DNA from: Alphaproteobacteria bacterium | GTDB lineage: Bacteria; Pseudomonadota; Alphaproteobacteria; UBA828 | Direction of reading: 5' to 3' | Length of the DNA stretch: 64,000 nucleotides | Assembly: GCA_965221125.1 (NCBI GenBank) | Contig: CBDCRW010000005.1 | Location: 480,001 to 544,000 of the forward strand | Part shown: positions 12,000 through 36,227 of the stretch, piece after piece | How positions within the stretch are numbered: position 1 is the first letter of the stretch | Layout: each line of letters opens with the position of its first letter | Notes under the pieces: generated by a model | The model's input: the letters and a program-made list of their open reading frames with translations, nothing else | What the model was told of the DNA's origin: nothing | The model's database searches: none | Translations under genes and position numbers: made by a program

Positions 12000-13103
12000 A
12001 TGCCGACGATGAAGATGCACCTCGACCTGCTGCCGGATTTCCTGCGCGGCACGGCCTTTCTCGGCACCGGCGGTGGCGGCGATCCCTATGTCGGCGGGCT
12101 TATCCTCAGGCAGAAGCTGGAGGAAGGCGCCGACATCACGATCATGGACCCGATGGAATTGGACGACGACGACTTCGTCGTCTCGGTCGCCAACATGGGC
12201 GCGCCGACGGTGATGGTGGAGAAGATCCCGAGCGCGCTCTCCATGGTGAAATGCCTGCGCTCGCTGGAGCGCGAGAAGGGGCGCAAGGCGGACGCGCTCA
12301 TCGCCGCCGAGGCCGGCGGCATCAACGGCACGCTGCCCATGGTGATCGGCGCCTTGACCGGGCTTCCCGTGGTGGATGGCGACGGCATGGGCCGCGCCTT
12401 CCCGGAGCTGCAGATGTGCACCTTCGGCGTCTACGGCGTGCCCGCGTCGCCCATCGTGCTCCGCGACGAGCACGACAACGAGGTCATCGTCCGCGCCCGC
12501 AGCAATCTCGAATCCGAGTGGTTCGCGCGCGTGGTGTGCACCCGCATGGGCACCAAGTCGGAGATCGCGCTCTATTCCATGTCCGGCAAGCAGGCAAAGG
12601 AGACCGGCGTGCTCTACACCACCACCCTCGCCATGGAGATCGGCCGCTCGATCCGCGAGGCGCGGGAGACCCAGAGCGACCCCTTCGCCGGCCTCCAGCG
12701 CTACTTCGCGACCTCGCGGGACAAGCGCTTCTGCAAGGTGCTGTTCGAAGGCAAGGTGGTGGACCTGTTGCGCGAGACCACGCGCGGCTGGGCCATCGGC
12801 CGGGTGAAGTTCGAGGGGATCGGCACGAGCACCGGGGAACAGCTGGAGGTGCGCTTCCAGAACGAGTTCCTGGTGGCGCAACAGGGCGAGCGCATGCTCG
12901 GCATGGTGCCGGACCTCATCTGCATCCTCGATCAGGAGAACGCCGAGCCCATCACCACGGAGGGTCTCAAGTACGGCCAGCGCGTGCGCGTGGTCGGCGT
13001 CAGCGTGCCGCCTGTCATGCGCACGCCCGAGGCGATCGAGGTCTTCGGCCCCAAGTATTTTGGCATCTCGGACGTCTACACGCCGATCGAGGAGCTGGTC
13101 TGA
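12000..13103 (+). CDS. DUF917-family protein (S-methyl thiohydantoin desulfurase-like)
   Basis: LGTGGGGDP, GAPTV, EAGGING, VDGDGMGRAFPELQM, FQNE, VPDLI, EGLKYGQRV. Confidence 0.88.
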   Translation: MPTMKMHLDLLPDFLRGTAFLGTGGGGDPYVGGLILRQKLEEGADITIMDPMELDDDDFVVSVANMGAPTVMVEKIPSALSMVKCLRSLEREKGRKADALIAAEAGGINGTLPMVIGALTGLPVVDGDGMGRAFPELQMCTFGVYGVPASPIVLRDEHDNEVIVRARSNLESEWFARVVCTRMGTKSEIALYSMSGKQAKETGVLYTTTLAMEIGRSIREARETQSDPFAGLQRYFATSRDKRFCKVLFEGKVVDLLRETTRGWAIGRVKFEGIGTSTGEQLEVRFQNEFLVAQQGERMLGMVPDLICILDQENAEPITTEGLKYGQRVRVVGVSVPPVMRTPEAIEVFGPKYFGISDVYTPIEELV

Positions 13104-13127
13104 GGGTTCGGCCGCAGCCGACCCTGA

Positions 13128-14198
13128 TCAGTCGACGAGCAGCTCGCTGCTCGCCACGGTCCAGCCGATTATGGCCTCTGCGCCGTCGGCGAGAACCGGC
13201 TGATCCGGCCGGTTGGGCACTTCCGCCACGATCTCCTGGCCTTCGAGCTGCAGCCGGTAGCGGATGATCGCGCCCTGGTAGCTGCGATCGACCACGGTCG
13301 CGGTAGCCTTGGGGCCGTCGACGGCCTCTGCGTCGGGGCCGATCAGCACGCGCTCCGGCCGCACCACGAAGCCGACCGCTTGGCCGGTCTCGATCCCGTC
13401 CCGCCTGGGCGCTGCGAACTCGACACGGCCGACGGCGACGCGGCACTCATCCCTGCTCACCGCCGCGACGCGCGCCTCGAGGATGTTGGATTCGCCGATG
13501 AAGTCGGTGACGAAGCGATCGGCCGGATGCTCGTAGATCGTGTCAGGCGCGCCGATCTGCACCACCTTGGCCCGGTTCATCACCGCGATCCGGTCCGACA
13601 TGGTGAGCGCCTCGCCCTGGTCATGGGTGACGTACACCGTGGTGATGCGCAGCGAGTGTTGCAGCCCCTTGATCCAGTACTTCATCTCCTCCCGGAGCTT
13701 CTTGTCGAGCGCGCTCAAGGGCTCGTCGAGGAGCAGGATCTTGGGTTCGGTGATGAGCACGCGGGCGAGCGCCACGCGCTGCTGCTCGCCGCCCGACAGT
13801 TCGCGCTGGTAACGGCGTTCGTAGCCGTCGAGATTGACCTGTTCCAGCGCCTTGCCGACGCGGCCGCGGATCTCCCGCTTCGGCACCTTCCGCATCCTCA
13901 GGCCGAAGGCGATGTTGTCGAACACCGTCATGTGCGGAAAGATCGCGTAGTTCTGGAAGACGATGCCGATGCCGCGCCTCTCCGGCGGCAGCAGGGTCAT
14001 GTCGTCGCCGCCGATGAAGACCTGGCCCTCGTTGGGCCTGACGAAGCCCGCGATCATGCGGAGCGTCGTCGTCTTGCCGCAGCCGGACGGGCCGAGGAGG
14101 GAGAAGAACTCCCCCTCCTCGACCCGGAGCGACACGTCGTCGACCGCGAGCGTCTCGCCGTAGCGCTTCGTCAGGCTCGAAAGCTCGACGTCAGACAC
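13128..14198 (-). CDS. ABC transporter ATP-binding protein (PotA-like)
   Basis: GPSGCGKTT, LSGGEQQRVALAR, LLLDEP, VTHDQ; C-terminal TOBE-like region. Confidence 0.95.
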   Translation of the reverse strand: MSDVELSSLTKRYGETLAVDDVSLRVEEGEFFSLLGPSGCGKTTTLRMIAGFVRPNEGQVFIGGDDMTLLPPERRGIGIVFQNYAIFPHMTVFDNIAFGLRMRKVPKREIRGRVGKALEQVNLDGYERRYQRELSGGEQQRVALARVLITEPKILLLDEPLSALDKKLREEMKYWIKGLQHSLRITTVYVTHDQGEALTMSDRIAVMNRAKVVQIGAPDTIYEHPADRFVTDFIGESNILEARVAAVSRDECRVAVGRVEFAAPRRDGIETGQAVGFVVRPERVLIGPDAEAVDGPKATATVVDRSYQGAIIRYRLQLEGQEIVAEVPNRPDQPVLADGAEAIIGWTVASSELLVD

Positions 14199-22746: not shown

Positions 22747-24357
22747 TCAGCCGCCCACCCCGCCGTAGGCGACGCCGGAGAGGCGCGCCATGTCCTCCTT
22801 CCAGGTCACGAGGTCGTCGAGCGCGAATTCGCCGAGGTGCGTGTGCCCGCAGGCGCGCGCCATGATCTTCATCAGCTCGACGCTCGCCTCGAAGAAGCTC
22901 GCGAGCCGCCGCGCCGACTTCTCCACCTCGATCCGCGCGGCAAGATGAGGCTTCTGCGTCGCGATGCCGACCGGGCAGTTGTTGGTGTGGCAGGCGCGCA
23001 TGCCGAGGCAGCCGATGGCCTGAATCGCGGCATTGGAAACCGCGACCGCATCGGCGCCGAGCGCCAGCGCCTTGGCGAAATCGGCGGGCTTGCGAAGGCC
23101 GCCCGTGATCACCAGCGTCACGTCCCGGCGCCCGGACGCGTCGAGATGGCGGCGGGCGCGCGCCAGCGCCGGGATCGTCGGCACCGAGATGTTGTCGCGG
23201 AAGATGAGCGGCGCCGCCCCGGTGCCGCCGCCGCGGCCATCCAGGATGACGTAGTCGACGCCCACGTCCAGCGCCGCGTCGATGTCCTTCTCGATGTGCT
23301 GGGCCGAGAGCTTGTAGCCGATGGGGATGCCGCCGGTGCGGCTGCGCACCTCGTCGGCGAAGTCCCGCACCTGGCGCCAGTCCGTCCAGTCCGGGAAGCG
23401 AGGCGGCGAGACCGCGGGCGTGCCTTCGGGCAGCCCCCGCACGTCGGCGATCTTGCCCATCACTTTGTGCCCTGGCAGGTGCCCGCCGGTGCCTGTCTTG
23501 GCGCCTTGCCCGCCCTTGAAGTGGAAGGCCTGCACGTGCTCGAGCTTGTCCCACGAGAAGCCGAAGCGGCCGGAGGCATACTCGTAGAAGTAGCGGCTGC
23601 AGGCCTGCTGCTCCTCCGGCAGCATGCCGCCCTCGCCCGAGCAGATGCCGGTGCCGGAAAGCTCCGCGCCGCGCGCGAGCGAAACCTTGGCGGGCTCCGA
23701 GAGCGCCCCAAAACTCATGTCGGAGACGAGGAGCGGAATCTCCAGCGTGAGCGGCTTCTGCGCATTGGGCCCGATCACCACCTCGGTGCCGACCGGCTCG
23801 TCGTCCAGGTGCGGCATGCGGTGAAGCTGCGCCGTGATGAACTGGATGTCGTCCCAGCTCGGCAGGTCCTGGCGCGGCACGCCCATGGCCACGACCACGC
23901 CGTGGTGGCCGGTCTTGGCAAGCCCGTCCTTCGCGTAGCCCTGGATGAGGCCCACATGGGGCTCCTCGGCTGCCGGGTGCGTGTCGGCGTAGAGGCCGAG
24001 ATACTCGTCCCGCTTGAAGGGCTGCGGGTGCTCCTCCTCCCAGGTGCCGATCTCGTCGGCGTCCACCAGAATCTGCCCGTCCTCGATCCACGAGGCGAAC
24101 CTGGGCAGGACCTCCGCGTTGTTGTACTCGCTGACGCCGGTATCGAGGCGGTAGTCCCAGTCGTGCACGCCGCAGATCAGGTTCTCGCCGTCGACGTAGC
24201 CGTCGGACATGAGCGCGCCCCGGTGCAGGCAGCGGCCGTAGAAGACGGACACGTTGTCGTCGTAGCGCACGACGCAGAGATCGACGTCGCCGACCAGCGC
24301 GTAGGCCGGCTCGCGGTCAGCCAATTCGTCGAGCGTCTTGATCGCGATCTTGTTCAT
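22747..24357 (-). CDS. Rieske [2Fe-2S] + FMN-binding glutamate synthase-family fusion
   Basis: CLH...CGVH Rieske motif; DMSFGALS, SGEGG, GQGAKTGTGGHLPG, DGRGGGTGAAP; CLGMRACHTNNCPVG 3Fe-4S motif. Confidence 0.88.
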   Translation of the reverse strand: MNKIAIKTLDELADREPAYALVGDVDLCVVRYDDNVSVFYGRCLHRGALMSDGYVDGENLICGVHDWDYRLDTGVSEYNNAEVLPRFASWIEDGQILVDADEIGTWEEEHPQPFKRDEYLGLYADTHPAAEEPHVGLIQGYAKDGLAKTGHHGVVVAMGVPRQDLPSWDDIQFITAQLHRMPHLDDEPVGTEVVIGPNAQKPLTLEIPLLVSDMSFGALSEPAKVSLARGAELSGTGICSGEGGMLPEEQQACSRYFYEYASGRFGFSWDKLEHVQAFHFKGGQGAKTGTGGHLPGHKVMGKIADVRGLPEGTPAVSPPRFPDWTDWRQVRDFADEVRSRTGGIPIGYKLSAQHIEKDIDAALDVGVDYVILDGRGGGTGAAPLIFRDNISVPTIPALARARRHLDASGRRDVTLVITGGLRKPADFAKALALGADAVAVSNAAIQAIGCLGMRACHTNNCPVGIATQKPHLAARIEVEKSARRLASFFEASVELMKIMARACGHTHLGEFALDDLVTWKEDMARLSGVAYGGVGG

Positions 24358-24421
24358 CGGCTTGTGCCTTTCGCCGCCGCGCGCGGCCCGCACGGCGCCC
24401 TGTCGATGCTCAGGCGCCGCC

Positions 24422-24661
24422 TCAATCGCCTGGGTCGGCGAGGGAAACGCCGCGTCTGCGCAGCAGGAGTTCGGCTCGCCTGAAGACGATGTGGGCGACG
24501 CACAGCAGGGCGAAGGCGCCCATGACGCCGGCGAAGATGCCGAAGCCGGAGATGAGCGTGCCGCGAATCTGCTGCTGCACCTCCAGATAGACCCAGTAGG
24601 AGGCGTAGCCCAGGCCGGCGGTCACGATTGCGCCGATAACGATCCAGGCGGCGTTGCGCAT
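24422..24661 (-). CDS. Small two-TM membrane protein
   Basis: 79 aa with two hydrophobic segments; starts 3 nt after the upstream stop. Confidence 0.65.
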   Translation of the reverse strand: MRNAAWIVIGAIVTAGLGYASYWVYLEVQQQIRGTLISGFGIFAGVMGAFALLCVAHIVFRRAELLLRRRGVSLADPGD

Positions 24662-24664
24662 GGC

Positions 24665-25453
24665 TCAGAGCACCTTGGCCTTGTCGATGTCGACCTTGAA
24701 GACGAGCAAGTCGTCGAGGCGCTCGACCTCGCCTTCGAGCTGGACGAGGACCGCCACGTAGTCGCCGAAGTTGTCGGGGAGCGGCCCGCCGTCCTCATCG
24801 GCCATCAGCAGGAAGGTCTCGCCGGCGACCGCGCCTTCCTCTTGCGTGACGAAAATCGGCGGCGCGCCGGAGGAGATGCAGAGGTTGGCGCAGGCCTTGT
24901 GCGCGAGCCCGTCGCCCGGCCGCATCGCGCCGAGATGGCACTTGCTGTCGCAGATCTCGCCGATCAACCGCCAGCGCCCGAGGGGCTCGGCCGGGGCCGG
25001 GGTGAACGTCGGCGGCGGCTCGCCCTCGCCCGCCTCGGTCGCCTTGAGGGACTTCTTGCCCTGGACCTGCAGCATGTCGATGTCGCCGCGCTGAAACATG
25101 AAGCCCTTCACGTCGACGAGCTGGCCGAAAAGTTTTCTGCCGCGGCGCTTGACGCTGCGCTTGCCGGGCACCGTGAGCATGACCGTCCGGGCTTCGGGAT
25201 TCTTGGCGTCCGGGCGCACGCGCAGGATCGGATAGGGCTTCTCCAACAGCACCCCCGTCATCTCCTGCTTGCCGAGCTTGCGCGCGAACGCGCCGTCGCC
25301 GGGGTCGTTCGCGTTGGTGCCGAGCGCGTAGCCGAGGCCCGCCATGCTGCCCACGAGCAGGGCGGCGACCGCCACGAGGAAGATCGCGAGCGGGCGCGGC
25401 ACCGTGTTCAGGTAGCCGATGAAGAAGCCGGAATCGGGTGCGCGGCCTGCCAT
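24665..25453 (-). CDS. Membrane-anchored hypothetical protein with Cys/His motif
   Basis: N-terminal TM helix; GEICDSKCHLGAMRPG..AHKACANLCISSGAPP. Confidence 0.8.
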   Translation of the reverse strand: MAGRAPDSGFFIGYLNTVPRPLAIFLVAVAALLVGSMAGLGYALGTNANDPGDGAFARKLGKQEMTGVLLEKPYPILRVRPDAKNPEARTVMLTVPGKRSVKRRGRKLFGQLVDVKGFMFQRGDIDMLQVQGKKSLKATEAGEGEPPPTFTPAPAEPLGRWRLIGEICDSKCHLGAMRPGDGLAHKACANLCISSGAPPIFVTQEEGAVAGETFLLMADEDGGPLPDNFGDYVAVLVQLEGEVERLDDLLVFKVDIDKAKVL

Positions 25454-25454
25454 G

Positions 25455-26525
25455 TTACGCCTCCGTCACGTCTGCGGGAGCGATGCGCACCGGCTCGACA
25501 CGGGTGCCGGGCTCGTTGGCCCGCGGGTCGAGCAGGATGCGCCGGCCGTCGAGCTTGAGCCGGTAAGTCGCGACCTTCTCGGTAAACGGCGGCGGCGCGC
25601 GGCCGTCCTCCGGCCGGTACTGGAAGCCGTGCCACGGGCAGGTCACGCAACCGTCCATGATGCGCCCCTCGCCGAGCGGCCCGTTCTGATGGGCGCAGAC
25701 GTTGGCGAGCGCCGACAGCTTGTCGTCGTAGCGGAAGATCGCGACCCGCTCGTCCCCGTCCAGCGGCACGACGATTCCGCGCCCGTCCGGCACCTGCTCC
25801 ACATAGCCGGCGACGACCCAGGGCGCCTCCTCGGCGTCCTCGGCCGCGTTCCGGTCCTTCTGCCGCTCGATGCGCCCCGCGACGAGGTGCAGGCCGGTGA
25901 CCAGCACCACGCTGAGCCCCACGATGGCGGCGAGGATCGGGCTCTGCTTCGACTGCAGGGAGCCGAGCACGATATGGCAGACGATCGCCGCATAGGCGAC
26001 GTAGACCGAGATGTGAATCGCCTTCCAGATCGACGGAGTCAGGAACCTGAGCCAGAAGTCGTGGCTCGTCGCCGCGAGCACCAGCAGCAGGAAGAGCGCG
26101 AAGATGCCGAAGGTCTCGAAGGGGAAGCCGAGGAAGCGATCGTAGCTCGTGTTGCTTGCCAGCACGGCGACGTACTTGTTGAGCGGGCTGAACGAGTAAT
26201 AGATGCTGACGATGCTGGCCGCGTGGGTGAACGCCACCGCGCAGGTGATCACGCCGAAATGCCGGCGGTTGTAGAGCAGCGGCAGGAAGCGCGTATCCAG
26301 CCGCGCGAGCGGCCCGATACAGAGGACGAACGTCAGCATCAGGAAGGCGCAGGTGCCGAAGGCCTGCGACCTGAGGATGACTCCGGTGGTGGGCTTGGTG
26401 ACGTCCTGAAAGCTTGGCGCGATCTTGATGTAGAGCAGAATGAATGCGACGACGGCCGCCAGCAGCACGACGTCGTAGATGATCTTGTTGCGGTTCCAGC
26501 CGACCGGCGCGTAGCGCACGCTCAT
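25455..26525 (-). CDS. Ferric reductase-like TM domain + C-terminal Rieske fusion
   Basis: YNRRHFG, AATSHD, WKAIH..VY and intramembrane His residues; CAHQNG...CPWHG. Confidence 0.87.
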   Translation of the reverse strand: MSVRYAPVGWNRNKIIYDVVLLAAVVAFILLYIKIAPSFQDVTKPTTGVILRSQAFGTCAFLMLTFVLCIGPLARLDTRFLPLLYNRRHFGVITCAVAFTHAASIVSIYYSFSPLNKYVAVLASNTSYDRFLGFPFETFGIFALFLLLVLAATSHDFWLRFLTPSIWKAIHISVYVAYAAIVCHIVLGSLQSKQSPILAAIVGLSVVLVTGLHLVAGRIERQKDRNAAEDAEEAPWVVAGYVEQVPDGRGIVVPLDGDERVAIFRYDDKLSALANVCAHQNGPLGEGRIMDGCVTCPWHGFQYRPEDGRAPPPFTEKVATYRLKLDGRRILLDPRANEPGTRVEPVRIAPADVTEA

Positions 26526-26540
26526 CGCTCCAGCGCCCCC

Positions 26541-26720
26541 TTACTCGTCCGCCGTGGCGGCGGGCGCGGCGGCCTCGGCCGCGGGCTTCTCGATCTGGAC
26601 CGCGGATTTCTCCGTCGGCCCGTGCTGGCGAATGGCGAGCGCCGCGATCAGCATCGCGGGCAGGAAGATGGCGAGCACCTTCCACATGTAGGCGTGGGTC
26701 TTGCGGTGGCGGCGCAGCAT
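26541..26720 (-). CDS. Small single-TM protein (59 aa, not in ORF track)
   Basis: MLRRHRKTHAYMWKVLAIFLPAMLIAALAIRQHGP...ADE*; fits between the neighbouring operon genes. Confidence 0.7.
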   Translation of the reverse strand: MLRRHRKTHAYMWKVLAIFLPAMLIAALAIRQHGPTEKSAVQIEKPAAEAAAPAATADE

Positions 26721-26730
26721 GGCGAAGCCG

Positions 26731-26943
26731 TCAGCCGCGCTGCCGCTCGACCGCGACCCAGCGGGCGATCACCAGCGGCCAGAGCACGATGCAGCCGGGG
26801 ATCAGCAGTGGGCGGAAGGCATAGGTGCGGCGCGCGCGCGGGTCCACCCGCTCGATGCCGTAGAGCAGGAACGCGGCGGCAACGGCGAGCCCGATGTAGC
26901 CGTAGTACTGCAGAATTTCGATGACGATGCGTGCCGCGTCCAC
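26731..26943 (-). CDS. Small two-TM membrane protein
   Basis: 70 aa; YGYIGLAVAAAFL..RVDP..AFRPLLIPGCIVLWP; GGGGG RBS-like run before GTG. Confidence 0.75.
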   Translation of the reverse strand: MDAARIVIEILQYYGYIGLAVAAAFLLYGIERVDPRARRTYAFRPLLIPGCIVLWPLVIARWVAVERQRG

Positions 26944-27132
26944 GCTTCACCCCCCTGAAGAGCGGGCGCCGCCCATGGCCCCCGCCGGAGATCGTGTCCC
27001 GTCGCCCACCCCTGTCCTCGGCGCGGCTGAACGATACGAACGTTCGCGGCCCGTGCCAACCCAAAGTGCGATCAACAATGCGCGAGGCGCATATCAGGAG
27101 GGCCGGGCTTCGCGTAACCGGGAGCCGGCGTG

Positions 27133-27471
27133 TCAGCCGGCGAGGACCTCGAGCGCGGCGGCCCTGGTCGGGTGGACCGCGATGAGCCTGTCCGCGCCGC
27201 TCCCCGCGAAGACCGCGGCGACGACCCCCTGCGGCGCGCAGATGGCCAGGCTCACGTCGCGGTCCCGCAGGATCCGGGCGGTGATCCGAAGCGCGCGCAG
27301 GCCGACGTTGCCGATGTAGGCGAGCTGCTCGAAGTCCAGGACCACGGCGCGGTCGCCTCCCTGAAGCGCCCCGGTAATCGCTGTCTGGAGCGCGCTGGCG
27401 CTCTTCGGATCGATCCGCCCGCTCACCGCCGCGATCAGGACATCGCCGCGCCGCTCCGTGCTCACTTCCAT
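27133..27471 (-). CDS. STAS-domain protein (anti-anti-sigma-like)
   Basis: SGRID..VVLDFEQLAYIGNVGLR; GGAGG RBS. Confidence 0.85.
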   Translation of the reverse strand: MEVSTERRGDVLIAAVSGRIDPKSASALQTAITGALQGGDRAVVLDFEQLAYIGNVGLRALRITARILRDRDVSLAICAPQGVVAAVFAGSGADRLIAVHPTRAAALEVLAG

Positions 27472-27702
27472 CGCCCGCCTCCCCGCGCAAACAGCGCGCG
27501 GCTATACCACGCGCGCAGGCTGCCCCGCCAGCCTGGGCAGCCGGCTACACGTTACCGCATGCAACTGGAGTGGAGCGGCATAGGGGAAGTGCTGGAATTC
27601 GCCCGCCATCCTCCCCATGATAGGAGCGAGCGGCGGCACCCCACGGCCCGGCCAGGGACGCGACACGAACGGGCGGGGAACCCGACCGCAGAGGGCTGGG
27701 AG

Positions 27703-29199
27703 ATGGCCACCTCGACGATACCGATGGCGCGGGGCCTGCCGGTCGTCGGCAGCGTCTTCGACTTGGCGCGGGACGTGCGCGCCTTCATGACCGACAACTA
27801 CCTGGAGCACGGGCCGGTCTACGGCATGCGCCTGTTCAACCGGCGCTTCACCGTGCTGGCCGGGATGGAGGCCAACCGCTTCCTCGCGCGCGAGGGCACG
27901 AAGCACGTTCGCTCGTTCGAGTTCTGGAGCGGCTTCAACGCCTGGTTCGGCGCGGCACGGTCGACGCTGAGCGCCGACGGGCCGGAGCATGCGGCGTTCC
28001 GGCGCACGCTGAAGCGGGGCTATTCGCGCGAGTACGCCGTGGAGCACATCGACGGCCTCGTCGACATCGCCCGCCGCGAGATCGCGGCGTGGCCAGAGGG
28101 CAAGCCGATGCCCGCGCTGCCGGCGCTGCAGCGCATCGTCACCGACCAGGTGGGCACCCTGGTGGCCGGCGTCTCGCCCCGCCCCTACAACGACGACCTC
28201 GTCCGCTACGTCCACGGGCTGCTCTCGGCCACCATGGTCCCCGGCCCCTACGTGCGCTGGTCGCCCCGCTTCCGCCGTGCGTCCGCACGCGTGGACAAGC
28301 TCTACCACGAGGTGATCGAGCGCCATTCCGGCACGATGCGGGAGCGGCACGGCGCAGAGCCCGACCTGATCGACGACCTGCTGGACATGCACGAAGCGGA
28401 CCCGAAGTTCTTCCCCGAGGCGGACCTGAAGATCGCGGCGATGGGCCCCTTCGTCGCGGCGCTCGACACGGTGGCGGGCACGACCGCCTTCATGCTCTAC
28501 GCGCTGCTGCGCAACCCGGACGTGCTGGAGCGCGTGCGCGACGAGGCCGACGCCCTGCTTGCCGGCGACGTGCCGGCGGAGCAGGCGCTGCGCGAGATGG
28601 ATGCCACCCACCGCGCGGCCATGGAAACCATGCGGATGTATCCGGTGACCCCGATGCTCATCCGCACCGCCGCCAATTCCTTCGAGTTCGCGGGCCATCG
28701 CATCCCCGCCGGCGCGCGGCTGATCGTCGCCACCGCCGTGCCGCACTACCTGCCTGAATACTTCCCCGAGCCCGAGCGCTTCGACATCGACCGCTACACG
28801 CCGGAACGGGCGGAGCACAAGCAGGCTTACGTCTATGCGCCCTTCGGCCTCGGCCCCCATCGCTGCCTCGGCAGCGGCTTCGCCGAGGTGCAGATCGCCG
28901 CGACCATGGCGACCATCCTGAACGAGGTCGACCTCGACCTCGATCGGGCCGGCTACAGCCTGAAGACCACGCAGTTCCCCGTGCCCGCGCCGGCCGAATC
29001 GTTCAAGATCCGCGTCAGGGGCCGGCGCGGGGCCGCGCAGCCGCTCGCGGAGGGCAAGCCCTGGGGCGCGACGGGCGCCGTGCTCGGCAGCGCGCTGCTC
29101 GGCGGCGCGCTCTGGGGCGCGCTCGGCGCCGAGGCTGCGCGGGAAGCCTTTCGTTCGATAACGCCGGCGCAGCTCGGCCGGCGTCCGCTCATCCGATAA
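27703..29199 (+). CDS. Cytochrome P450 with C-terminal Gly-rich hydrophobic extension
   Basis: GLPVVG, AALDTV (I helix), ETMR (ExxR), PERF, FGLGPHRCLG heme Cys. Confidence 0.93.
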   Translation: MATSTIPMARGLPVVGSVFDLARDVRAFMTDNYLEHGPVYGMRLFNRRFTVLAGMEANRFLAREGTKHVRSFEFWSGFNAWFGAARSTLSADGPEHAAFRRTLKRGYSREYAVEHIDGLVDIARREIAAWPEGKPMPALPALQRIVTDQVGTLVAGVSPRPYNDDLVRYVHGLLSATMVPGPYVRWSPRFRRASARVDKLYHEVIERHSGTMRERHGAEPDLIDDLLDMHEADPKFFPEADLKIAAMGPFVAALDTVAGTTAFMLYALLRNPDVLERVRDEADALLAGDVPAEQALREMDATHRAAMETMRMYPVTPMLIRTAANSFEFAGHRIPAGARLIVATAVPHYLPEYFPEPERFDIDRYTPERAEHKQAYVYAPFGLGPHRCLGSGFAEVQIAATMATILNEVDLDLDRAGYSLKTTQFPVPAPAESFKIRVRGRRGAAQPLAEGKPWGATGAVLGSALLGGALWGALGAEAAREAFRSITPAQLGRRPLIR

Positions 29200-31031: not shown

Positions 31032-31715
31032 TCACCCGTTCCAGATCGGGTCCTTCAGGGTGGCGACGAAGGCGGCGTGCGCCGCTGCCTCGGCCTCCGA
31101 GGGCGGCGCGGGCGGGCGCGGCGTCCTGGTGCGCCTCGGCCCAGCGCCCGGCGCCGGTGCCGCGACAGCTGCCGGCGCTGCCTGCTGCAGGCCGAGCGCC
31201 GGCTGCCGGCCGCCGGTGAGCTCCAGGTAGACGTCGGTGAGCAGCTCGGCGTCGAGCAGGGCGCCGTGCTTCTCGCGCATGGAGCGATCGATCCCGAAGC
31301 GCTTGCAGAGGGCATCCAGGCTCGCCGGCGCGCCCGGATACTTTCGGCGCGCGATGACCAGCGTGTCCACCGTCCGCTCCGGCGGGATCGGGGGCCTCTC
31401 GATGCGCTCCAGCTCGGCGTTGAGGAAGCCCAGGTCGAAGGGCGCGTTGTGCATGACGAGCTTGGCGTCGCCGATGAATTCGAGGATCGCGTCGGCCTCG
31501 TCGGCGAAGCGCTTCTGCTTCGCGAGGAAGTCGCGGGTGAGCCCGTGCACGCGCTCGGCGCCCTCCGGCATGTCGCGCTCGGGGTCGAGATAGCGCTGGA
31601 AGCGGCGGCCCGAGGGGATGTGATTGACGAGCTCCACCGCGCCGACCTCGACGATCCTGTGGCCCGCCGAGGGGTCCAGGCCGGTGGTCTCGGTATCCAG
31701 CACGACTTCACGCAT
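31032..31715 (-). CDS. dnaQ: DNA polymerase III epsilon subunit
   Basis: LDTETTG, HNAPFD, HGALLDAELL..VYLEL. Confidence 0.96.
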   Translation of the reverse strand: MREVVLDTETTGLDPSAGHRIVEVGAVELVNHIPSGRRFQRYLDPERDMPEGAERVHGLTRDFLAKQKRFADEADAILEFIGDAKLVMHNAPFDLGFLNAELERIERPPIPPERTVDTLVIARRKYPGAPASLDALCKRFGIDRSMREKHGALLDAELLTDVYLELTGGRQPALGLQQAAPAAVAAPAPGAGPRRTRTPRPPAPPSEAEAAAHAAFVATLKDPIWNG

Positions 31716-32376
31716 GATCGCCCTGCCCTTCCTGCGTCAGCGCCCCGGCCCAGCACTTGGGCCAGCGCGTGCCCCGCATGGCGCCGAGCCGGGCCGCGAG
31801 CCGCCGGGCCGCGAGCCGCGAGACCCGCCTGTCGAGGCCGGTTCGGATCACGAAGTCCGCCCGCCGGCGCTTCTCGGCATCCGGCATCTGGCGCGCGAGG
31901 ATGGCGGCCAGCCGTTCCTCGCTCATCCTCGCCCGGCCCAGCACCCGCGCGCGCTGCACCGCGGCCGGGGCGGAGACCACCAGGGTGGCGTCGCAGCGGG
32001 CCTCGCCGCCCGTCTCGAAAAGGAGCGGCATGTCGAGGACCGCGAACCGGCAGCCCCGGCGCTGGCTCGCCGCGAGGAAGCGCCGCTCGCCCGCACGGAC
32101 GAGGGGGTGAAGGATCGCCTCCAGCGCGGCGAGCGCGTCCGGGTCGCCAAAAACCTGGGCGCCGAGCGTCCCACGGTCGACCGCTGGCGCGTCACCCTCG
32201 CCGGCGGCGGCATCGGGAAAACGCGCGAGCACCGGCGCCACGGCGGCCCCGCCGGGCCCGAGCAGCCGGTGGACCGCCGCATCGGCGTCGTAGACCGCAG
32301 CACCCGCGGCCTTGAGCGCGCCGGCCACGGTCGTCTTGCCCATGCCGATCGAGCCGGTGAGCCCAAGGACGACCAC
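31708..32376 (-). CDS. coaE: Dephospho-CoA kinase
   Basis: GLTGSIGMGKTT, DAD, LHPLV, PLLFE. Confidence 0.95.
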   Translation of the reverse strand: MVVLGLTGSIGMGKTTVAGALKAAGAAVYDADAAVHRLLGPGGAAVAPVLARFPDAAAGEGDAPAVDRGTLGAQVFGDPDALAALEAILHPLVRAGERRFLAASQRRGCRFAVLDMPLLFETGGEARCDATLVVSAPAAVQRARVLGRARMSEERLAAILARQMPDAEKRRRADFVIRTGLDRRVSRLAARRLAARLGAMRGTRWPKCWAGALTQEGQGDHA

Positions 32377-32389
32377 GGCCCGCCCTCCG

Positions 32390-33229
32390 TCAGAGCCCGT
32401 CTGCGGCGAAGGCGCGAAGCGCCGCCGTCGCCTCGGCCTCGGCGCCGAACCAGGCCGCGAAACCCGGCCGCGCCTGGTGGATCAACATGCCGAGGCCGTC
32501 CACCGCCACGTTGCCGCGCGCCCGTGCCGCCCGCAGCAGCGCCGTCTCCAGCGGCGCGTAGACGAGATCGTAGACCACCGCGCCGGCCGGCAGCCGCCCC
32601 AGATCGAGGTCGAGCGCAGGCTTGCCCCCCTGGCCGAGTTGCGTGGTGTTGACCAGCAAGCCGCAGCCCTCGAGCGCCGCCTCGCGCTCTTCCCACGGAC
32701 AAGGACGGACGGCGTCGCCGGCCGCCGCGGCGAGCGCCGACGCCCGCGCGCGCGTTCGGTTGGCGACGCGGATTTCCCGAATCCCTTCGGCCTGCAGCGC
32801 ATCCACCACGGCGCGTGCCGCGCCGCCGGCGCCGAGCATCGCCACGGGCGCCCCAGAATTCCAGCCGGGCGCCTCCTGGCGCAGGTGGCCGATGAATCCG
32901 AAGCCGTCGGTGTTGTCGCCGTGAAGCGCGCCGCCCTCGCCCACCGTCACGGTGTTCACGGCGCCGATACGCCGCGCGGTCTCCGACAACGAGGCCATGT
33001 GCGCGAGCGCCGCCTCCTTGTGGGGCGCGGTCAGGTTGCAGCCGCGAAAACCCAGAGCCGGCAGCCCGGCAAGCGCCGCGCCGAGGGCCTCGGGCCGGAC
33101 CGCGAGTGGCACGTAAGCGCCGTCGATCCCCTTCTCCTCGAGCCAGTAGCCGTGAATGCGGGGCGAGCGCGAGTGCGCGACCGGCCAGCCCATGACACCC
33201 GCAAGCCGTGCCCCGCCGGTGAGGATCAT
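32390..33229 (-). CDS. aroE: Shikimate dehydrogenase
   Basis: HSRSPRIH, NLTAPHK, GAVNT, NTDG, GAGGAA, NRT, GLGML. Confidence 0.95.
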   Translation of the reverse strand: MILTGGARLAGVMGWPVAHSRSPRIHGYWLEEKGIDGAYVPLAVRPEALGAALAGLPALGFRGCNLTAPHKEAALAHMASLSETARRIGAVNTVTVGEGGALHGDNTDGFGFIGHLRQEAPGWNSGAPVAMLGAGGAARAVVDALQAEGIREIRVANRTRARASALAAAAGDAVRPCPWEEREAALEGCGLLVNTTQLGQGGKPALDLDLGRLPAGAVVYDLVYAPLETALLRAARARGNVAVDGLGMLIHQARPGFAAWFGAEAEATAALRAFAADGL

Positions 33230-33867
33230 GTCTCCGCGAGTCCGTGCTCGCGGAGGAAGGCGAGCAGCGGCATCAGCGGCAGGCCCAGCACCGAGAACCA
33301 GTCGCCCCTGATCTCCGCCAGCAGCTGCGCGCCCAGGCCCTCCGCCTCGTAGCCGCCGACGCAGGCGAGGATGCCGTCGCCCGCGCGCTCCAGGTAGCGC
33401 TCCAGAAAGGCGTCGGAGAAGGGCCGCATGGTGAGCTGCGGGCAGGCCACGTCGCCCCAGATCTCGGCGTCGTCGCGGGCCACGCAGACCGCCGTGACCA
33501 GCGTATGGCTGCGGCCCCGGAGCCGCCTGAGCTGCCCGCGCGCGTCGTCCACGTCCACCGGCTTGTCGAACCACTCGTCGCCGCAGACCAGGAGCTGGTC
33601 GGCGCCGATGACGAAGGCGCCGGACGCGCCTGCGCTCACCCGCCGTGCCTTGAGGCCGGCCAGCATTCGCGCGGTCTCGCGGCCGTCGGGGTCCTGGGCC
33701 CGCATGGCCTCCTTGACAGCGCCCTCGTCCACCCGCGCCGGCTGCACGGTGAAGGAGAGCCCCGCCGCCCGCAGCATCGAGGCCCGCACGGTCGCCTGGG
33801 AGGCGAGCACCAGGCGCCTCTCGGCGGCCTCTCCGTGCGCGCTCGGGCCCGCCTCGGCGATTGCCAT
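33226..33867 (-). CDS. maf: Maf-family nucleotide pyrophosphatase
   Basis: LVLASQ, IGADQ, KP, VLGLPL. Confidence 0.93.
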   Translation of the reverse strand: MAIAEAGPSAHGEAAERRLVLASQATVRASMLRAAGLSFTVQPARVDEGAVKEAMRAQDPDGRETARMLAGLKARRVSAGASGAFVIGADQLLVCGDEWFDKPVDVDDARGQLRRLRGRSHTLVTAVCVARDDAEIWGDVACPQLTMRPFSDAFLERYLERAGDGILACVGGYEAEGLGAQLLAEIRGDWFSVLGLPLMPLLAFLREHGLAET

Positions 33868-33939
33868 GCTCACCGCTTCCTCTTGCCTTCCGTCCCGGGT
33901 GCGCTGAAGCATATACGCTTCGTGCGCCGCGCCAACCGC

Positions 33940-34755
33940 TCAGCCGGCCTGGGCACGCCGGTCGTGCAGCTGCAGGATTGCGGCCGCGGTTTCCTCGATC
34001 GAGCGCCGCGTCACGTCGATCACCGGCCATCCGCGCCTGGCGAAGAGCCGCCGCGCCTCCCTCACCTCCTCCTCGACCTGGAGAGGATCGACGTAGCCGG
34101 TCTCGCCGACATCGCCGATCATGCGCATGCGGCTGCGGCGCACGTCGATGAGCTGCTCCGGGTGGCAGGTGAGGCCGACCACCAGCGCACTCCTGAGCGC
34201 CTCCAGCTCCTGCGGCAGCGGGCAGGCGGGGACGAACGGCACGTTCGCGGCCTTGAGGCCGCGGTTGGCGAGGTAGAAGCAGGTGGGCGTCTTCGACGTT
34301 CGCGACACGCCGACGAGGACGATGTCCGCATCGCCGAGCGTCGCCGGCGAGCGGCCGTCATCGTGGCCCAGCGCATAGTTCATCGCTTCGATGCGCTTCA
34401 GATAGGCCGCATCCATGACATGCTGGCGGCCGGGCTGGTTGCGGCTCTCCGCGCCGAGGAAGCCGCTCAGCGCGGCGATCGCGGTATCCAGCAGCGGAAT
34501 GCAGGGAACGTCGATGCGGCTGCACTCGTCGAGCAGCAGAGCGCGAAGCGGCGGGTCGACCAGAGTGAACATGACGACGCCGGGTTCGGCCTCGACATGA
34601 GCGAGGACGCGCCGGAGCTGGCTCTCGGTCCGCACCAGCGACCACAGGTGCTCGACCGCATCCACGTCCTGGAACTGCGCCGCCGCTGCGCGGGCGATGG
34701 TGATGCAGGTCTCGCCGGTGGCGTCGGAGACCAGGTGCAGGTGGAAGTTCCGCAT
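33940..34755 (-). CDS. ppsR: Pyruvate,water dikinase regulatory protein (DUF299)
   Basis: HLVSDATGET, HDDG, GVSRTSKTP, VTRRSIEETAA. Confidence 0.95.
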   Translation of the reverse strand: MRNFHLHLVSDATGETCITIARAAAAQFQDVDAVEHLWSLVRTESQLRRVLAHVEAEPGVVMFTLVDPPLRALLLDECSRIDVPCIPLLDTAIAALSGFLGAESRNQPGRQHVMDAAYLKRIEAMNYALGHDDGRSPATLGDADIVLVGVSRTSKTPTCFYLANRGLKAANVPFVPACPLPQELEALRSALVVGLTCHPEQLIDVRRSRMRMIGDVGETGYVDPLQVEEEVREARRLFARRGWPVIDVTRRSIEETAAAILQLHDRRAQAG

Positions 34756-35168
34756 GACGTCGCTCGGGTTCCCCGTTTGCACGGCCGCGGCTACGCATTG
34801 TTCAACACTCGCCTCTGGAAAAGCCGTGGGCAACGCGGCCGCAGGCGATATCCTACAGACTATCCCCAGCTTGCCGGCTCAACCAATATGCAGGGCCGGC
34901 ATAGCGGGGATAACGGTGGAGTCACCGGCGCGCTCCCTCTCTGTCCCCGCTGTCCCCACGTTTCCCAGCCTGCTGGAACGCCTCGAAGCAGCGCCGATCG
35001 GCCGCTTTTCCACCGGCGCCGCCGCGTGCCGGAGCCCCGCTTCACGACCCGGCCCACAGCCGGGATGAACGGGATAATCCCTTCTTCCCGGCCTGCAACA
35101 TCAACCATCCTTATCTATAAAGGATTAATTGAAGATAGTCTGACGAAGCCGGGGACAGAGGTCGAGCC
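34756..35168. other. Probable chromosomal replication origin (oriC)
   Basis: Divergent DUF299/hemE intergenic region, the known origin location in Caulobacter and rhizobia. DnaA-box-like 9-mers TCTGGAAAA 34814, CTATCCCCA 34860, CGGGGATAA 34905, TTTTCCACC 35006 (each 7/9 to TTATCCACA or its complement); AT-rich tract 35096-35138; GANTC at 34919. Confidence 0.8.
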
Positions 35169-36227
35169 GTGGGCGAAGGCAGAGACGACAAGCCGCTCCT
35201 CGCGGCGCTCAGGGGGGAGGTACGCCAGCCGCCGCCGCTCTGGCTCATGCGCCAGGCGGGGCGCTACCTGCCGGAGTACCGCGCGCTCCGGGCGAGGGCC
35301 GGCTCCTTCCTCGATCTCTGTTACGACCCGGCGCTGGCGACGGAAGCCAGCCTCCAGCCGTTGAAGCGCTTCGCCCTCGACGGCGTGATCCTCTTCTCCG
35401 ATATCCTGGTGGTGGCTGAGGCGCTCGGGGTGAAGCTCTGGTTCGAGGAGGGGGAAGGTCCGCGGCTGGAGCCGGTCCGCGAGGGCGGTGCGCTCCCGGT
35501 TTTCGATCGGGGGCGCCAGCGGCGCCATCTCGCGCCGGTCTACGCGGCGATGGGCCAGGTCGCCGCAGCAGTGCCGGCCGGGGTCACGGTCTTGGGCTTT
35601 GCCGGCGCGCCGTGGACACTCGCGACCTACATGGTGGGCGGCGGCAGGAGCAGAGATTTTTTGGCCGTGAAGGGCTGGGCCTATCGCGATCCCGAAGGTT
35701 TTTCGCGGCTGATCGCGACGCTGCAGGAAGCGGTCGCGGACCACCTGATCGCCCAGCTCGACGCCGGCGCCGATGCGGTCCAGATCTTCGACAGCTGGGC
35801 CGGCGCGCTGCCCGAGAGCGAGTTCCGCCGCTGGTGCATCGTGCCCGTGGCGAAGATCGTGCGCGCGGTGAAGGCGGCGCACCCGGATGCCCCGGTGATC
35901 GGCTATCCGCGCGGCTCCGGCCTCGCCTACGAACGCTTCGCCGAAGAGACCGGCGTGGATGCGATCTCCATCGACAGCACGGTGCCGCCGCACTGGGCGG
36001 CCAGGCACCTGCAGCCCTTGTGCGCGGTGCAGGGCAACCTCGACCCCGCGGCCCTGGTGGCGGGGGGCGAGGCGCTGCACCGGGCAGCCGGCGCCATCCT
36101 GGATGCACTTGGGCATGGCCCCTTTGTGTTCAACCTCGGCGAGGGCGTCGTGCCCCAGACCCCGCCGGATCACGTCGCGGCGCTCTGCGACGTCGTCCAT
36201 TCCTGGCGAGGCGGGGCGACGCGATGA
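35169..36227 (+). CDS. hemE: Uroporphyrinogen decarboxylase
   Basis: WLMRQAGRYLPEYR, FSDIL, GFAGAPWTLATYM, QIFDSWAG, QGNLDP. Confidence 0.96.
   Translation: MGEGRDDKPLLAALRGEVRQPPPLWLMRQAGRYLPEYRALRARAGSFLDLCYDPALATEASLQPLKRFALDGVILFSDILVVAEALGVKLWFEEGEGPRLEPVREGGALPVFDRGRQRRHLAPVYAAMGQVAAAVPAGVTVLGFAGAPWTLATYMVGGGRSRDFLAVKGWAYRDPEGFSRLIATLQEAVADHLIAQLDAGADAVQIFDSWAGALPESEFRRWCIVPVAKIVRAVKAAHPDAPVIGYPRGSGLAYERFAEETGVDAISIDSTVPPHWAARHLQPLCAVQGNLDPAALVAGGEALHRAAGAILDALGHGPFVFNLGEGVVPQTPPDHVAALCDVVHSWRGGATR

Follow-up and report, generated by a model that had tools for sequence, protein, structure and literature searches.

The locus considered here raises the question of whether six closely spaced genes for membrane and redox proteins serve a single electron transfer system and, if so, between which partners and in which direction the electrons would move. 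The genes, referred to as g1 to g6, are open reading frames (ORFs) on the minus strand at positions 22747-26943 of the window, the term used throughout for the whole analysed stretch of 64,000 nucleotides from an alphaproteobacterial genome (assembly GCA_965221125.1, contig CBDCRW010000005.1). On balance, the locus probably encodes a five-protein membrane redox module, g1-g5, together with one cytoplasmic client enzyme, g6, from which electrons would be passed outwards. All six of the packed membrane and redox genes described in the first-pass annotation were recovered at the coordinates first given, and as each has counterparts in other genomes, they are not a product of chance. The proposal of a six-gene operon has been modified by the comparative evidence: the genes do co-occur elsewhere, but the conserved unit is the autonomous five-protein module, which often occurs alone, while clients such as g6 are optional, a single one being kept in the genus of the window.

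The 356-aa product of g3 (25455-26525) combines a six-helix ferric-reductase domain (FRD; Ferric_reduct, PF01794, residues 57-181, E = 6e-12, 46 bits against a cutoff of 28) with a C-terminal Rieske domain (PF00355, residues 236-320, E = 1e-14); neither FAD_binding_8 nor NAD_binding_6 was matched in the Pfam search. The haem ligands of FRD proteins are expected as two pairs of histidines on helices 3 and 5, 12-14 residues apart. Four histidines of g3, invariant across 21 sequences, agree with this pattern, being situated in predicted helices 3 and 5 at spacings of 12 (H89/H101) and 13 (H171/H184) residues, and they provide two candidate haem-b sites, H89/H171 and H101/H184. Also without variation in these sequences are the Rieske ligands (C277, H279, C296 and H299) and H155. 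Conserved haem-binding histidines in the third and fifth transmembrane helices are also described for the FRD superfamily in the accessible sections of a 2013 survey (PMC3591440), in which the combination of FRD and Rieske appears as an architecture without an assigned function.

The AlphaFold2 (AF2) model of g3 (predicted local distance difference test, pLDDT, 80.8) has a membrane part similar in structure to STEAP4 and STEAP1 (Z 16.9, 208/198 residues aligned, root-mean-square deviation (rmsd) 4.1), the membrane domain of NOX5 (Z 15.3), SpNOX (Z 10.8), DUOX1 and NOX2. The likeness to NOX and STEAP (PDB 5o0t, 8qq7, 6hcy and 6y9b; Z 15.3-16.9 between model and structures) comprises the six-helix, two-haem core, the fusion of a cytoplasmic entry domain to it and the outward flow proposed here. 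By contrast, the entry domain of g3 is a Rieske 2Fe-2S domain, and not one of the FAD/NADPH or F420 type, and the acceptor side would be capped by g4. Because the entry domain is of this kind, the donor to g3 is expected to be another protein rather than a pyridine nucleotide. Both ends of g3, and hence its Rieske domain, are expected to be cytoplasmic, since the number of helices is even, the N-terminus and the loop between helices 2 and 3 are positively charged, and no twin-arginine motif is present. The Rieske part of the model is closest to the shuttle ferredoxins of Rieske oxygenase chains (BphA4-BphA3-BphA1 and CarAd-CarAc-CarAa), matching BphA3 with a template modelling score of 0.87, an rmsd of 1.9 and 30% identity, and being similar also to CarAc. 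These chains are a precedent for transfer from a flavin through one Rieske centre to another, but they differ from the present locus, where no oxygenase is found and the Rieske domains form part of a membrane cytochrome and of flavoenzymes from other families.

One nucleotide downstream of g3 lies g4 (24665-25453, 262 aa), predicted to consist of an N-terminal membrane anchor and two beta-barrels resembling oligonucleotide/oligosaccharide-binding (OB) domains; in its AF2 model (pLDDT 81, pTM 0.72), one membrane helix (residues 20-46) precedes the barrels. This is a large family, with 2300 clusters at 50% identity (E <= 0.001), 1126 of them at E <= 1e-30. Among the 1087 homologues found, every name shown was 'hypothetical protein' and none carried a Pfam domain; no Pfam or NCBIfam family corresponds to g4, and none of 22 members gave a meaningful Pfam match. 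An Atlas cluster label of 'DUF5666' (score 0.96) was not reproduced by Pfam. The structural matches of the model are to generic OB folds and fall in the grey zone (PriB, Z 7.8; NlpE, 6.7; SilF, 6.4; VIA-align), the OB-fold handlers of metals or haem considered as possible kin of g4 being CusF/SilF, CcmE and NlpE. A Foldseek search with the model gave no match at E <= 0.001, and no thioredoxin-like fold was among the structural matches.

What is strongly conserved in g4 is a core motif, E166-x2-D169-x-K-C172-x4-M177-x-P179-x5-H185-x2-C188-A-x2-C192, of which E166, D169, C172, M177, P179, H185, C188 and C192 are invariant across the 22 sequences. The C-x3-CH..H-x2-C-x3-C pattern picked out in the first-pass annotation is borne out, though its conservation is partial: at least 90% of the 22 sequences have C168, for which other residues stand in some members and in the fused proteins discussed below, and the histidine directly after C172 varies.

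In two neighbourhood surveys, one centred on g6 and one on the module, g4 adjoins g3 in 35 of the 38 g6-centred loci with g3 and in 76 of the 80 module-centred loci. Nearly all of the 98 long g3 homologues listed are single polypeptides of approximately 624-675 aa with both FRD and Rieske domains, and they derive from Myxococcota, Acidobacteriota, Planctomycetota, Verrucomicrobiota, Thermoanaerobaculia and others. In both of those compared, the C-terminal part is g4-like (P0244, residues 367-617, E = 3e-25; P0310, E = 1e-20), and an alignment of 13 fused g3-g4 proteins shows no variation in the g4 motif. As the order in these fusions is Rieske domain, helix, g4 domain, the g4 domain would lie across the membrane from the Rieske domain.

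Modelling of the two proteins as a complex gave a score of 0.82, against 0.00 for the best of three controls; the mark for this score is reached by 116 of 157 solved complexes and by 2 of 215 mismatched pairs, counts that are only rough because own alignments were used. Agreement of contacts between runs was at least 82%, with a partner pLDDT of at least 80. In the modelled interface, the g4 helix packs against helices 1 and 2 of g3, and g4 residues 47-55, 96-99, 177-195 (the motif), 230-235 and 261 contact g3 loops 39-50, 109-137 and 187-201, which are on the side opposite the Rieske domain, itself not part of the interface. The model supports, without proving, a placement in which g4 faces the periplasm with its Cys/His/Met site over the outer haem of g3. 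Given the 1-nt gap, the adjacency, the fusions in other phyla and the passing complex model, g3 and g4 are one unit, and the earlier suggestion that g4 is a periplasmic-side partner of the cytochrome is backed by the fusions and the model.

The last gene of the locus, g6, is a flavoenzyme of unusual composition. It extends over 22747-24357 (536 aa, ATG start) or to 24393 (548 aa, GTG start), the ATG being the likely start since homologues begin near residue 13. It contains an N-terminal Rieske domain (PF00355, residues 17-88, E = 2e-11) and a Glu_synthase domain (PF01645, residues 207-516, E = 1e-87), and would bind flavin mononucleotide (FMN) and a 3Fe-4S cluster as GltB does. The C-x5-C-x4-C-P cysteines of the 3Fe-4S site align with those of the solved GltB chains 7mfm and 2vdc and are kept in 70 of 70 orthologous ORFs, and the Rieske ligands are present in 65 of the 70. 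The FMN domain, these cysteines and most signature motifs are shared with GltB and ferredoxin-dependent glutamate synthase (Fd-GOGAT; PDB 1ea0, 2vdc, 1ofd and 7mfm). Unlike these, g6 gives no Pfam match to GATase_2 or GXGXG, its match to Glu_syn_central is below cutoff (E = 0.0045, 16.9 bits against 22.8), and it carries a Rieske domain at its N-terminus, replaced by two CDGSH domains in some relatives. A further difference is the family signature loop QGAKTGTGGHLPG, present in 65 of the 70 orthologous ORFs (the other five giving no pattern match), where a canonical 1575-aa GltB-type ORF elsewhere in the same genome has QGAKPGEGGQLPG; two loop residues differ from GltB, E being replaced by T and Q by H. 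The Lys and Arg of the active-site region are kept in an alignment with the GltB structures, and we take these to be 2-oxoglutarate ligands in GltB, the literature search having given no source for their roles.

That g6 might be a plain ferredoxin-dependent glutamate synthase, or a subunit of an N-methylglutamate synthase, is suggested by the strong match to the FMN domain and by the conserved 3Fe-4S cysteines. This identity is rejected by the domain tests and is practically untenable: besides lacking the amidotransferase and GXGXG domains and having a sub-cutoff central domain, g6 scores 121 bits with the GltB equivalog NF008730, against a cutoff of 1047, and its N-terminal Rieske domain and altered loop are conserved across the family. 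The part of a 2026 preprint available describes MgsABC as having a GltB-like subunit alongside amidotransferase-like and GXGXG subunits. No genes of Mgs or GltD type were found among the six genes or in the flanks between 13 and 36 kb of the window. These results bear out the first-pass annotation, in which g6 was held to be neither a normal GOGAT nor a standard N-methylglutamate synthase.

The nature of the N-terminal domain of g6 is illuminated by four homologues that are 66-73% identical in the FMN domain and match g6 only from residue ~139 on. In these, two zf-CDGSH 2Fe-2S motifs replace the Rieske domain, as confirmed by Pfam in the three that were scanned (E 2e-14 to 1e-19), and the QGAKTGTGGHLPG loop is present in three of the four. 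They are found at L108:4776-6440 (minus strand), L109:4292-6049 (plus), L110:2545-4275 (plus) and L111:813-2321 (minus), and come from one genome of the window's family and from three genomes of an alphaproteobacterial sample, described below, in which g6 occurs alone; neither g4 nor the Rieske-containing thiamine enzyme introduced below was found in those three. That one histidine-ligated 2Fe-2S domain can stand in for another points to an exchangeable carrier at the N-terminus, which would pass electrons to or from the 3Fe-4S/FMN site. The combination of CDGSH with Glu_synthase is mentioned, as an architecture only, in the consulted portion of PMC5859297.

Orthologues of g6 are highly conserved. 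Of 20 further genomes from the genus, 16 have one at 91-94% identity, one has a partial match and three have only paralogues; identity is ~73-80% in Roseibium, Rhodobacterales, Hyphomicrobiaceae, Beta- and Gammaproteobacteria and Gemmatimonadota, 67% in a metagenome-assembled genome of Verrucomicrobia, and 62-73% in Bacteroidota, Planctomycetota, Acidobacteriota and Balneolaceae. The neighbourhood survey centred on g6 took the best 80 of 561 relatives in a collection with one genome per species, with flanks of 7 kb. Five of these loci are close kin with the window's arrangement, so that counts refer to the other 75, and they are lower bounds because some loci end at contig ends. Within 7 kb of g6, g3 is found in 38 of the 75 loci, 35 of these also having g4. 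A second neighbour, an enzyme combining a Rieske domain with thiamine pyrophosphate (TPP)- and FAD-binding parts, occurs in 53 of the 75, 20 of them without the module, and in 33 both g3 and this enzyme are present. At least five gene orders were seen, across Alpha- and Betaproteobacteria and Verrucomicrobia: g1-g5 then g6 in the window's genus; g6, module, TPP enzyme in Rhodobacterales; g6, TPP enzyme, module in Roseibium; the module upstream of and separated from g6; the module on the opposite strand in Betaproteobacteria; and g6, TPP enzyme, g1, g3, g4 in Verrucomicrobia. The neighbourhood survey proposed in the first-pass annotation, having now been run, thus places g6 and the module side by side in several orders and phyla.

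The Rieske-TPP enzyme is ~660 aa in length with its Rieske domain at the N-terminus (for example L067:8544-10619, plus strand, with 52 other loci of L011-L090). It is closest to pyruvate oxidase/PoxB (E = 7e-117 in NCBIfam, 2e-68 in the PDB) and, like PoxB/pyruvate:quinone oxidoreductase (PDB 3ey9 and 3eya), would be a flavin/thiamine enzyme handing electrons to the membrane; it differs in its N-terminal Rieske domain and in scoring below every NCBIfam cutoff. The Rieske domain of g3 is 37-43% identical to that of the TPP enzyme (P0337, P0338). No orthologue was found in the window's genome with the one query used, the best matches being 31-32% identical and leaving the Rieske part uncovered.

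A reciprocal survey centred on the module (the best 80 of 581 relatives, L112-L191, mostly from other phyla, again with 7 kb) found g6 in 13 loci, the TPP enzyme in 8 and both in 7; the 13 g6 orthologues, at 62-73% identity, belong to Bacteroidota, Planctomycetota, Acidobacteriota, Balneolaceae and others. The module as a whole was found in more than ten phyla, a distribution far wider than that of g6. A sample of 301 alphaproteobacterial genomes was drawn evenly, with the window's own included and g6 counted at E <= 1e-150; in it, g4 is present in 13, g6 in 14 and the Rieske-TPP enzyme in 13. All three occur together in six genomes, g6 and the TPP enzyme alone in three, and g6 and g4 alone in one, that of the window; g4, the TPP enzyme and g6 are found singly in six, four and four genomes respectively. 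Hence g6 and g4 share 7 of the 301 genomes, against ~0.6 expected, and g6 and the TPP enzyme share 9. Fisher p values for these overlaps range from 1e-7, the value for g6 with g4, to 3e-11 and are overstated, as related genomes are not independent.

The three small genes of the module, g1 (26731-26943, 70 aa, two predicted membrane helices), g2 (26541-26720, 59 aa, one predicted helix) and g5 (24422-24661, 79 aa, two predicted helices with an R-G-T motif between them), belong to no Pfam or NCBIfam family, with chance-level matches only even at E <= 1. Homologues of g1 stand upstream of g3 in many loci and share a conserved F-R-P-L-L-I-P-G..W-P-L-V..R-W motif, with 16 columns invariant across 12 sequences. 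In seven Rhodobacterales loci (L018, L021, L029, L031, L038, L056 and L087), g1 and g2 are one ORF of ~120 aa, g2 forming its C-terminal half; in other loci g2 has tblastn matches of 36-92%. An ORF of 80-90 aa homologous to g5 follows g4 across three sequence subfamilies, with W23, F50 and L53 invariant in 11 sequences. By these sequence comparisons, g1, g2 and g5 are real small accessory membrane subunits of the module.

The six genes are tightly packed, with gaps from g1 to g6 of 10, 15, 1, 3 and 64 nt. The G+C content at third codon positions is 0.86-0.95 across all six, including the small genes g1 (0.90), g2 (0.95) and g5 (0.86), in a region of ~70% G+C. Four weak consensus matches to internal terminators were found, against 2.1 expected, none of them convincing. 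A consensus scan identified a promoter-like site, TTGGCA-17-TATCGT (27031-27059, minus strand), ~90 nt before g1, within the 189 nt that separate it from a STAS-domain gene; with one site found against 0.3 expected, it is a lead only. Four metatranscriptome libraries contain contigs, 88-99% alike, that span much of the operon; these are the sequences of relatives and may include DNA. A contig of 2017 nt corresponds to 24335-26364, taking in g5, g4 and the greater part of g3, and another of 1456 nt to 22876-24331 in g6, both being ~91% alike. Such contigs indicate presence rather than strand, ends or a single transcript, and the parts they leave uncovered are uninformative.

The mechanism that these observations suggest is as follows, with the cofactors bound, the contact between g6 and g3, the substrate, the direction of flow and the acceptor all being inferred. 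The product of g3 would be a two-haem cytochrome b of the NOX/STEAP/MsrQ type, in which a Rieske ferredoxin takes the place of the flavin/NADPH domain as the cytoplasmic entry. The barrels of g4 would cover the periplasmic loops of g3, bringing the invariant Cys3/His/Met site beside the outer haem; this site, with its acidic residues, may hold a metal or haem, or act through thiols. In g6, the enzyme's own Rieske domain would be wired to the 3Fe-4S/FMN site of glutamate-synthase type, at which glutamate or a similar alpha-amino dicarboxylate may be oxidised to the 2-imino/2-oxo acid. Electrons would then travel from FMN through the 3Fe-4S cluster, the Rieske centres of g6 and g3, and the inner and outer haems to the g4 site, and from there possibly to a periplasmic metal ion, O2 or an oxidised protein. 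In most other lineages, the Rieske-TPP enzyme could be a second client, oxidising the 2-oxo acid product likewise. A sequential scheme can be imagined, by pure inference, in which g6 converts glutamate to 2-oxoglutarate and the PoxB-like enzyme then converts 2-oxoglutarate to succinate and CO2; its attraction is that the two clients are so often adjacent.

Outward flow is favoured because characterised FRD proteins work in this way and because of the membrane potential and the potential of Rieske ferredoxins. To our knowledge, every characterised FRD protein passes electrons outwards. The membrane potential favours outward electron movement, and the donors of known glutamate synthases are usually stronger reductants than Rieske-type ferredoxins. 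Several observations weigh against the proposal of an outward-directed module with g6 as its client. Reductive amination is conceivable instead, with Rieske-type ferredoxins feeding the 3Fe-4S/FMN site. Of the 75 g6-centred loci, 17 have no module and no TPP enzyme near g6, contig ends limiting some of these, and 62 of the 80 module-centred loci are without either client within 7 kb. Six of the 13 g4 genomes of the class sample are without g6, and in three genomes that have both, the two genes are apart, by ~40 kb, by ~19 kb or on different contigs. The outward topology of g4 depends on charge bias, fusion order and a model, and g4 is without a recognised cofactor motif. The substrate suggested for g6 depends on the conserved Lys and Arg, presumed to act as in GltB, and two loop residues differ. 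Expression offers weak support: the RNA contigs derive from relatives, may include DNA and leave a single transcript unproven. Finally, a fusion of FRD, Rieske and GltB domains, looked for because 'FMN' and 'Rieske' are listed in one architecture in the accessible sections of PMC3591440, was found in none of the 98 long g3 homologues listed, a weak point given that long proteins crowd such searches.

The main rival to the outward reading is that g6 works reductively, as an ammonia-dependent glutamate synthase whose Rieske domain replaces ferredoxin or GltD and is reduced by the Rieske-TPP enzyme or, in the window's genus, by the membrane module. In most lineages, the reaction would be 2-oxo acid + 2-oxoglutarate + NH3 -> acid + CO2 + glutamate, a closed two-electron loop for which g6 and the TPP enzyme need no further partner. 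The frequent adjacency of the TPP enzyme (53 of 75 loci, 20 without the module) and its presence in 9 of the 14 g6 genomes, three of them without g4, fit such a loop, as do the conserved FMN/3Fe-4S site and the Lys and Arg of the GltB loop region. The window's own genome argues otherwise, since it already has a canonical GltB and the best matches to the TPP enzyme there are at 31-32%, without coverage of the Rieske part. With no TPP orthologue found, the module would have to push electrons inwards against the membrane potential, from donors of at least quinol potential. The target couple of reductive glutamate synthesis is near -140 mV, and the usual potential of Rieske ferredoxins relative to known glutamate synthase donors is a further obstacle. 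Taken together, a reductive g6 seems unlikely, if still appreciable. It is quite improbable, on the other hand, that g6 and the module are functionally independent, each with other redox partners and brought together by shared regulation or joint horizontal transfer. Each does occur without the other in many genomes, g3-g4 stands among unrelated genes in genomes having only g4, and CDGSH-type g6 is found in genomes where the module and the TPP enzyme were not found. Yet recurrent adjacency, in five or more gene orders and across distant phyla, would not be expected without selection, the overlap between genomes is far above chance, and all three partners share the same kind of Rieske ferredoxin domain, with 37-43% identity between those of g3 and the TPP enzyme.

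A further possibility concerns the acceptor end, and refines the outward reading rather than competing with it. The module might be a repair or stress system resembling MsrPQ, in which g4 reduces periplasmic thiols, sulfoxides or metal ions and g6 is the donor at times of stress. The FRD fold is shared with MsrQ, to which g3 has a weak model match (NF003831, E = 1e-9), and the invariant Cys-rich site of g4 would face the outer haem. In four g6-centred loci (L015, L023, L033 and L070), a small gene of ~100 codons for a zf-HC2 (ZAS-type, H-x3-C-x2-C) anti-sigma factor lies upstream of a run of antiporter, g6, TPP enzyme and DUF5996 genes (L070:4533-5521, minus strand, beside a gene for an extracytoplasmic function (ECF) sigma factor; L015:4584-4892; L023:4588-4902; L033:4686-5012), and 12 of the 80 g6-centred loci have an ECF sigma match no more than 7 kb away, such genes recurring near the module in other phyla too. 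These neighbours hint at control by oxidative or thiol stress in some lineages, but they are a minority pattern that does not extend to the window. As the MsrQ match of 38.3 bits is far below the cutoff of 130, no MsrP-type molybdoenzyme is in the operon and g4 has no thioredoxin-like fold, a system of this kind is very improbable.

Comparison with MsrPQ (YedYZ) of E. coli sets out what is shared and what is not. Both have an FRD haem-b protein that passes, or in the present case would pass, electrons outwards to a periplasm-facing partner encoded beside it. In g3, however, a cytoplasmic Rieske domain is fused and the four invariant histidines fit two haems; the partner g4 is an OB-like Cys/His/Met protein rather than a molybdoenzyme, with three small membrane subunits in addition, and no molybdopterin enzyme was found among the six genes or in the flanks, which places the locus outside MsrPQ. 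The system, as proposed, works like an exporter of the NOX/MsrQ type and is no member of the MsrPQ, NOX or GOGAT systems. A bolder version of the outward reading, which must be called clearly unlikely, is a widespread and so far overlooked 'plug-and-socket' system of respiratory type: flavoenzymes tagged with Rieske or CDGSH domains would oxidise first glutamate and afterwards the 2-oxo acid formed from it, docking on g3 at its Rieske 'socket', and g3 would export the electrons to the periplasmic OB-fold protein g4. If true, bacteria would have in it a counterpart of NADPH oxidase or STEAP that is driven by amino acids, and it could underlie enzymatic extracellular superoxide production or metal reduction by marine and host-associated heterotrophs.

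In a sub-group of g6 loci, g6 is often preceded by a gene of the Na+/H+-exchanger family, and the TPP gene is followed by one for a DUF5996 protein. In several Rhodobacterales loci, genes of 5-oxoprolinase type (LamB/YcsF, with CT_C_D also in four loci) lie just downstream of g6 and the TPP gene (L026:10835-11650 and 12626-13441, minus strand; also L034, L043, L045, L040, L041 and L087), reflecting possibly a link to glutamate supply or merely local synteny. In genomes having only g4, no shared partner was found around g3-g4, whose neighbours are unrelated (malate synthase, PPK2, a TRAP transporter, a histidine kinase and others). Outside Proteobacteria, recurrent neighbours of g3-g4 include GNAT (Acetyltransf_5), VTT/DedA, DoxX, TANGO2-like, SDR and aquaporin genes, as well as GMC oxidoreductase, glycogen-debranching and MGH1-like glycoside hydrolase genes and ECF sigma factors; no clear functional theme emerges from the neighbours in L112-L191.

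The genes flanking the locus in the window are not part of the unit in other lineages. Upstream lie the STAS-domain gene (27133-27471, minus strand) and a P450 gene (27700-29199, plus strand), whose Pfam match begins at about 27700; the long ORF that holds the latter, 27130-29199, overlaps the STAS gene on the opposite strand, and the true P450 start is probably well inside it. Downstream, and convergent with g6, are two tandem homocysteine S-methyltransferase paralogues (PF02574; 20535-21593 and 21615-22724, plus strand), ~78% identical, a pair kept in the genus (L011-L013 and L060) and not next to g6 elsewhere. A fatty-acid desaturase and a helix-turn-helix regulator are found farther downstream. 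Elsewhere in the window, at 31032-36227, genes for a DnaQ-like exonuclease, CoaE, Maf, a kinase/pyrophosphorylase and HemE stand together, a neighbourhood that we take to be typical of Alphaproteobacteria.

A search of openly available full texts found no published study of the module or of the g6 system, its hits being the two architecture surveys cited above and papers on unrelated proteins; this agrees with the first-pass annotation, in which the locus was put forward as a candidate for an undescribed system. The DNA data sets that match this stretch best may be its source sample, and in others, labelled as sponge metagenomes, ~0.34-0.42 of its sampled words occur. Proteins of the FRD superfamily (NOX, STEAP, ferric reductases and MsrQ) are the main known route by which electrons cross the membrane to an outside acceptor. 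The present locus belongs to a large branch of it in which the entry domain, the obligate outer partner and the small subunits are all new. The frequent clients of this branch, ~80% identical between orders, are among the most conserved proteins of these genomes while having no known reaction. Knowledge of the substrate and acceptor would give a function to several thousand 'hypothetical' genes and would test whether 2Fe-2S tags are general docking modules for flavoenzymes. It might also uncover a path leading from amino-acid catabolism to redox chemistry in the periplasm of marine and sponge-associated bacteria.

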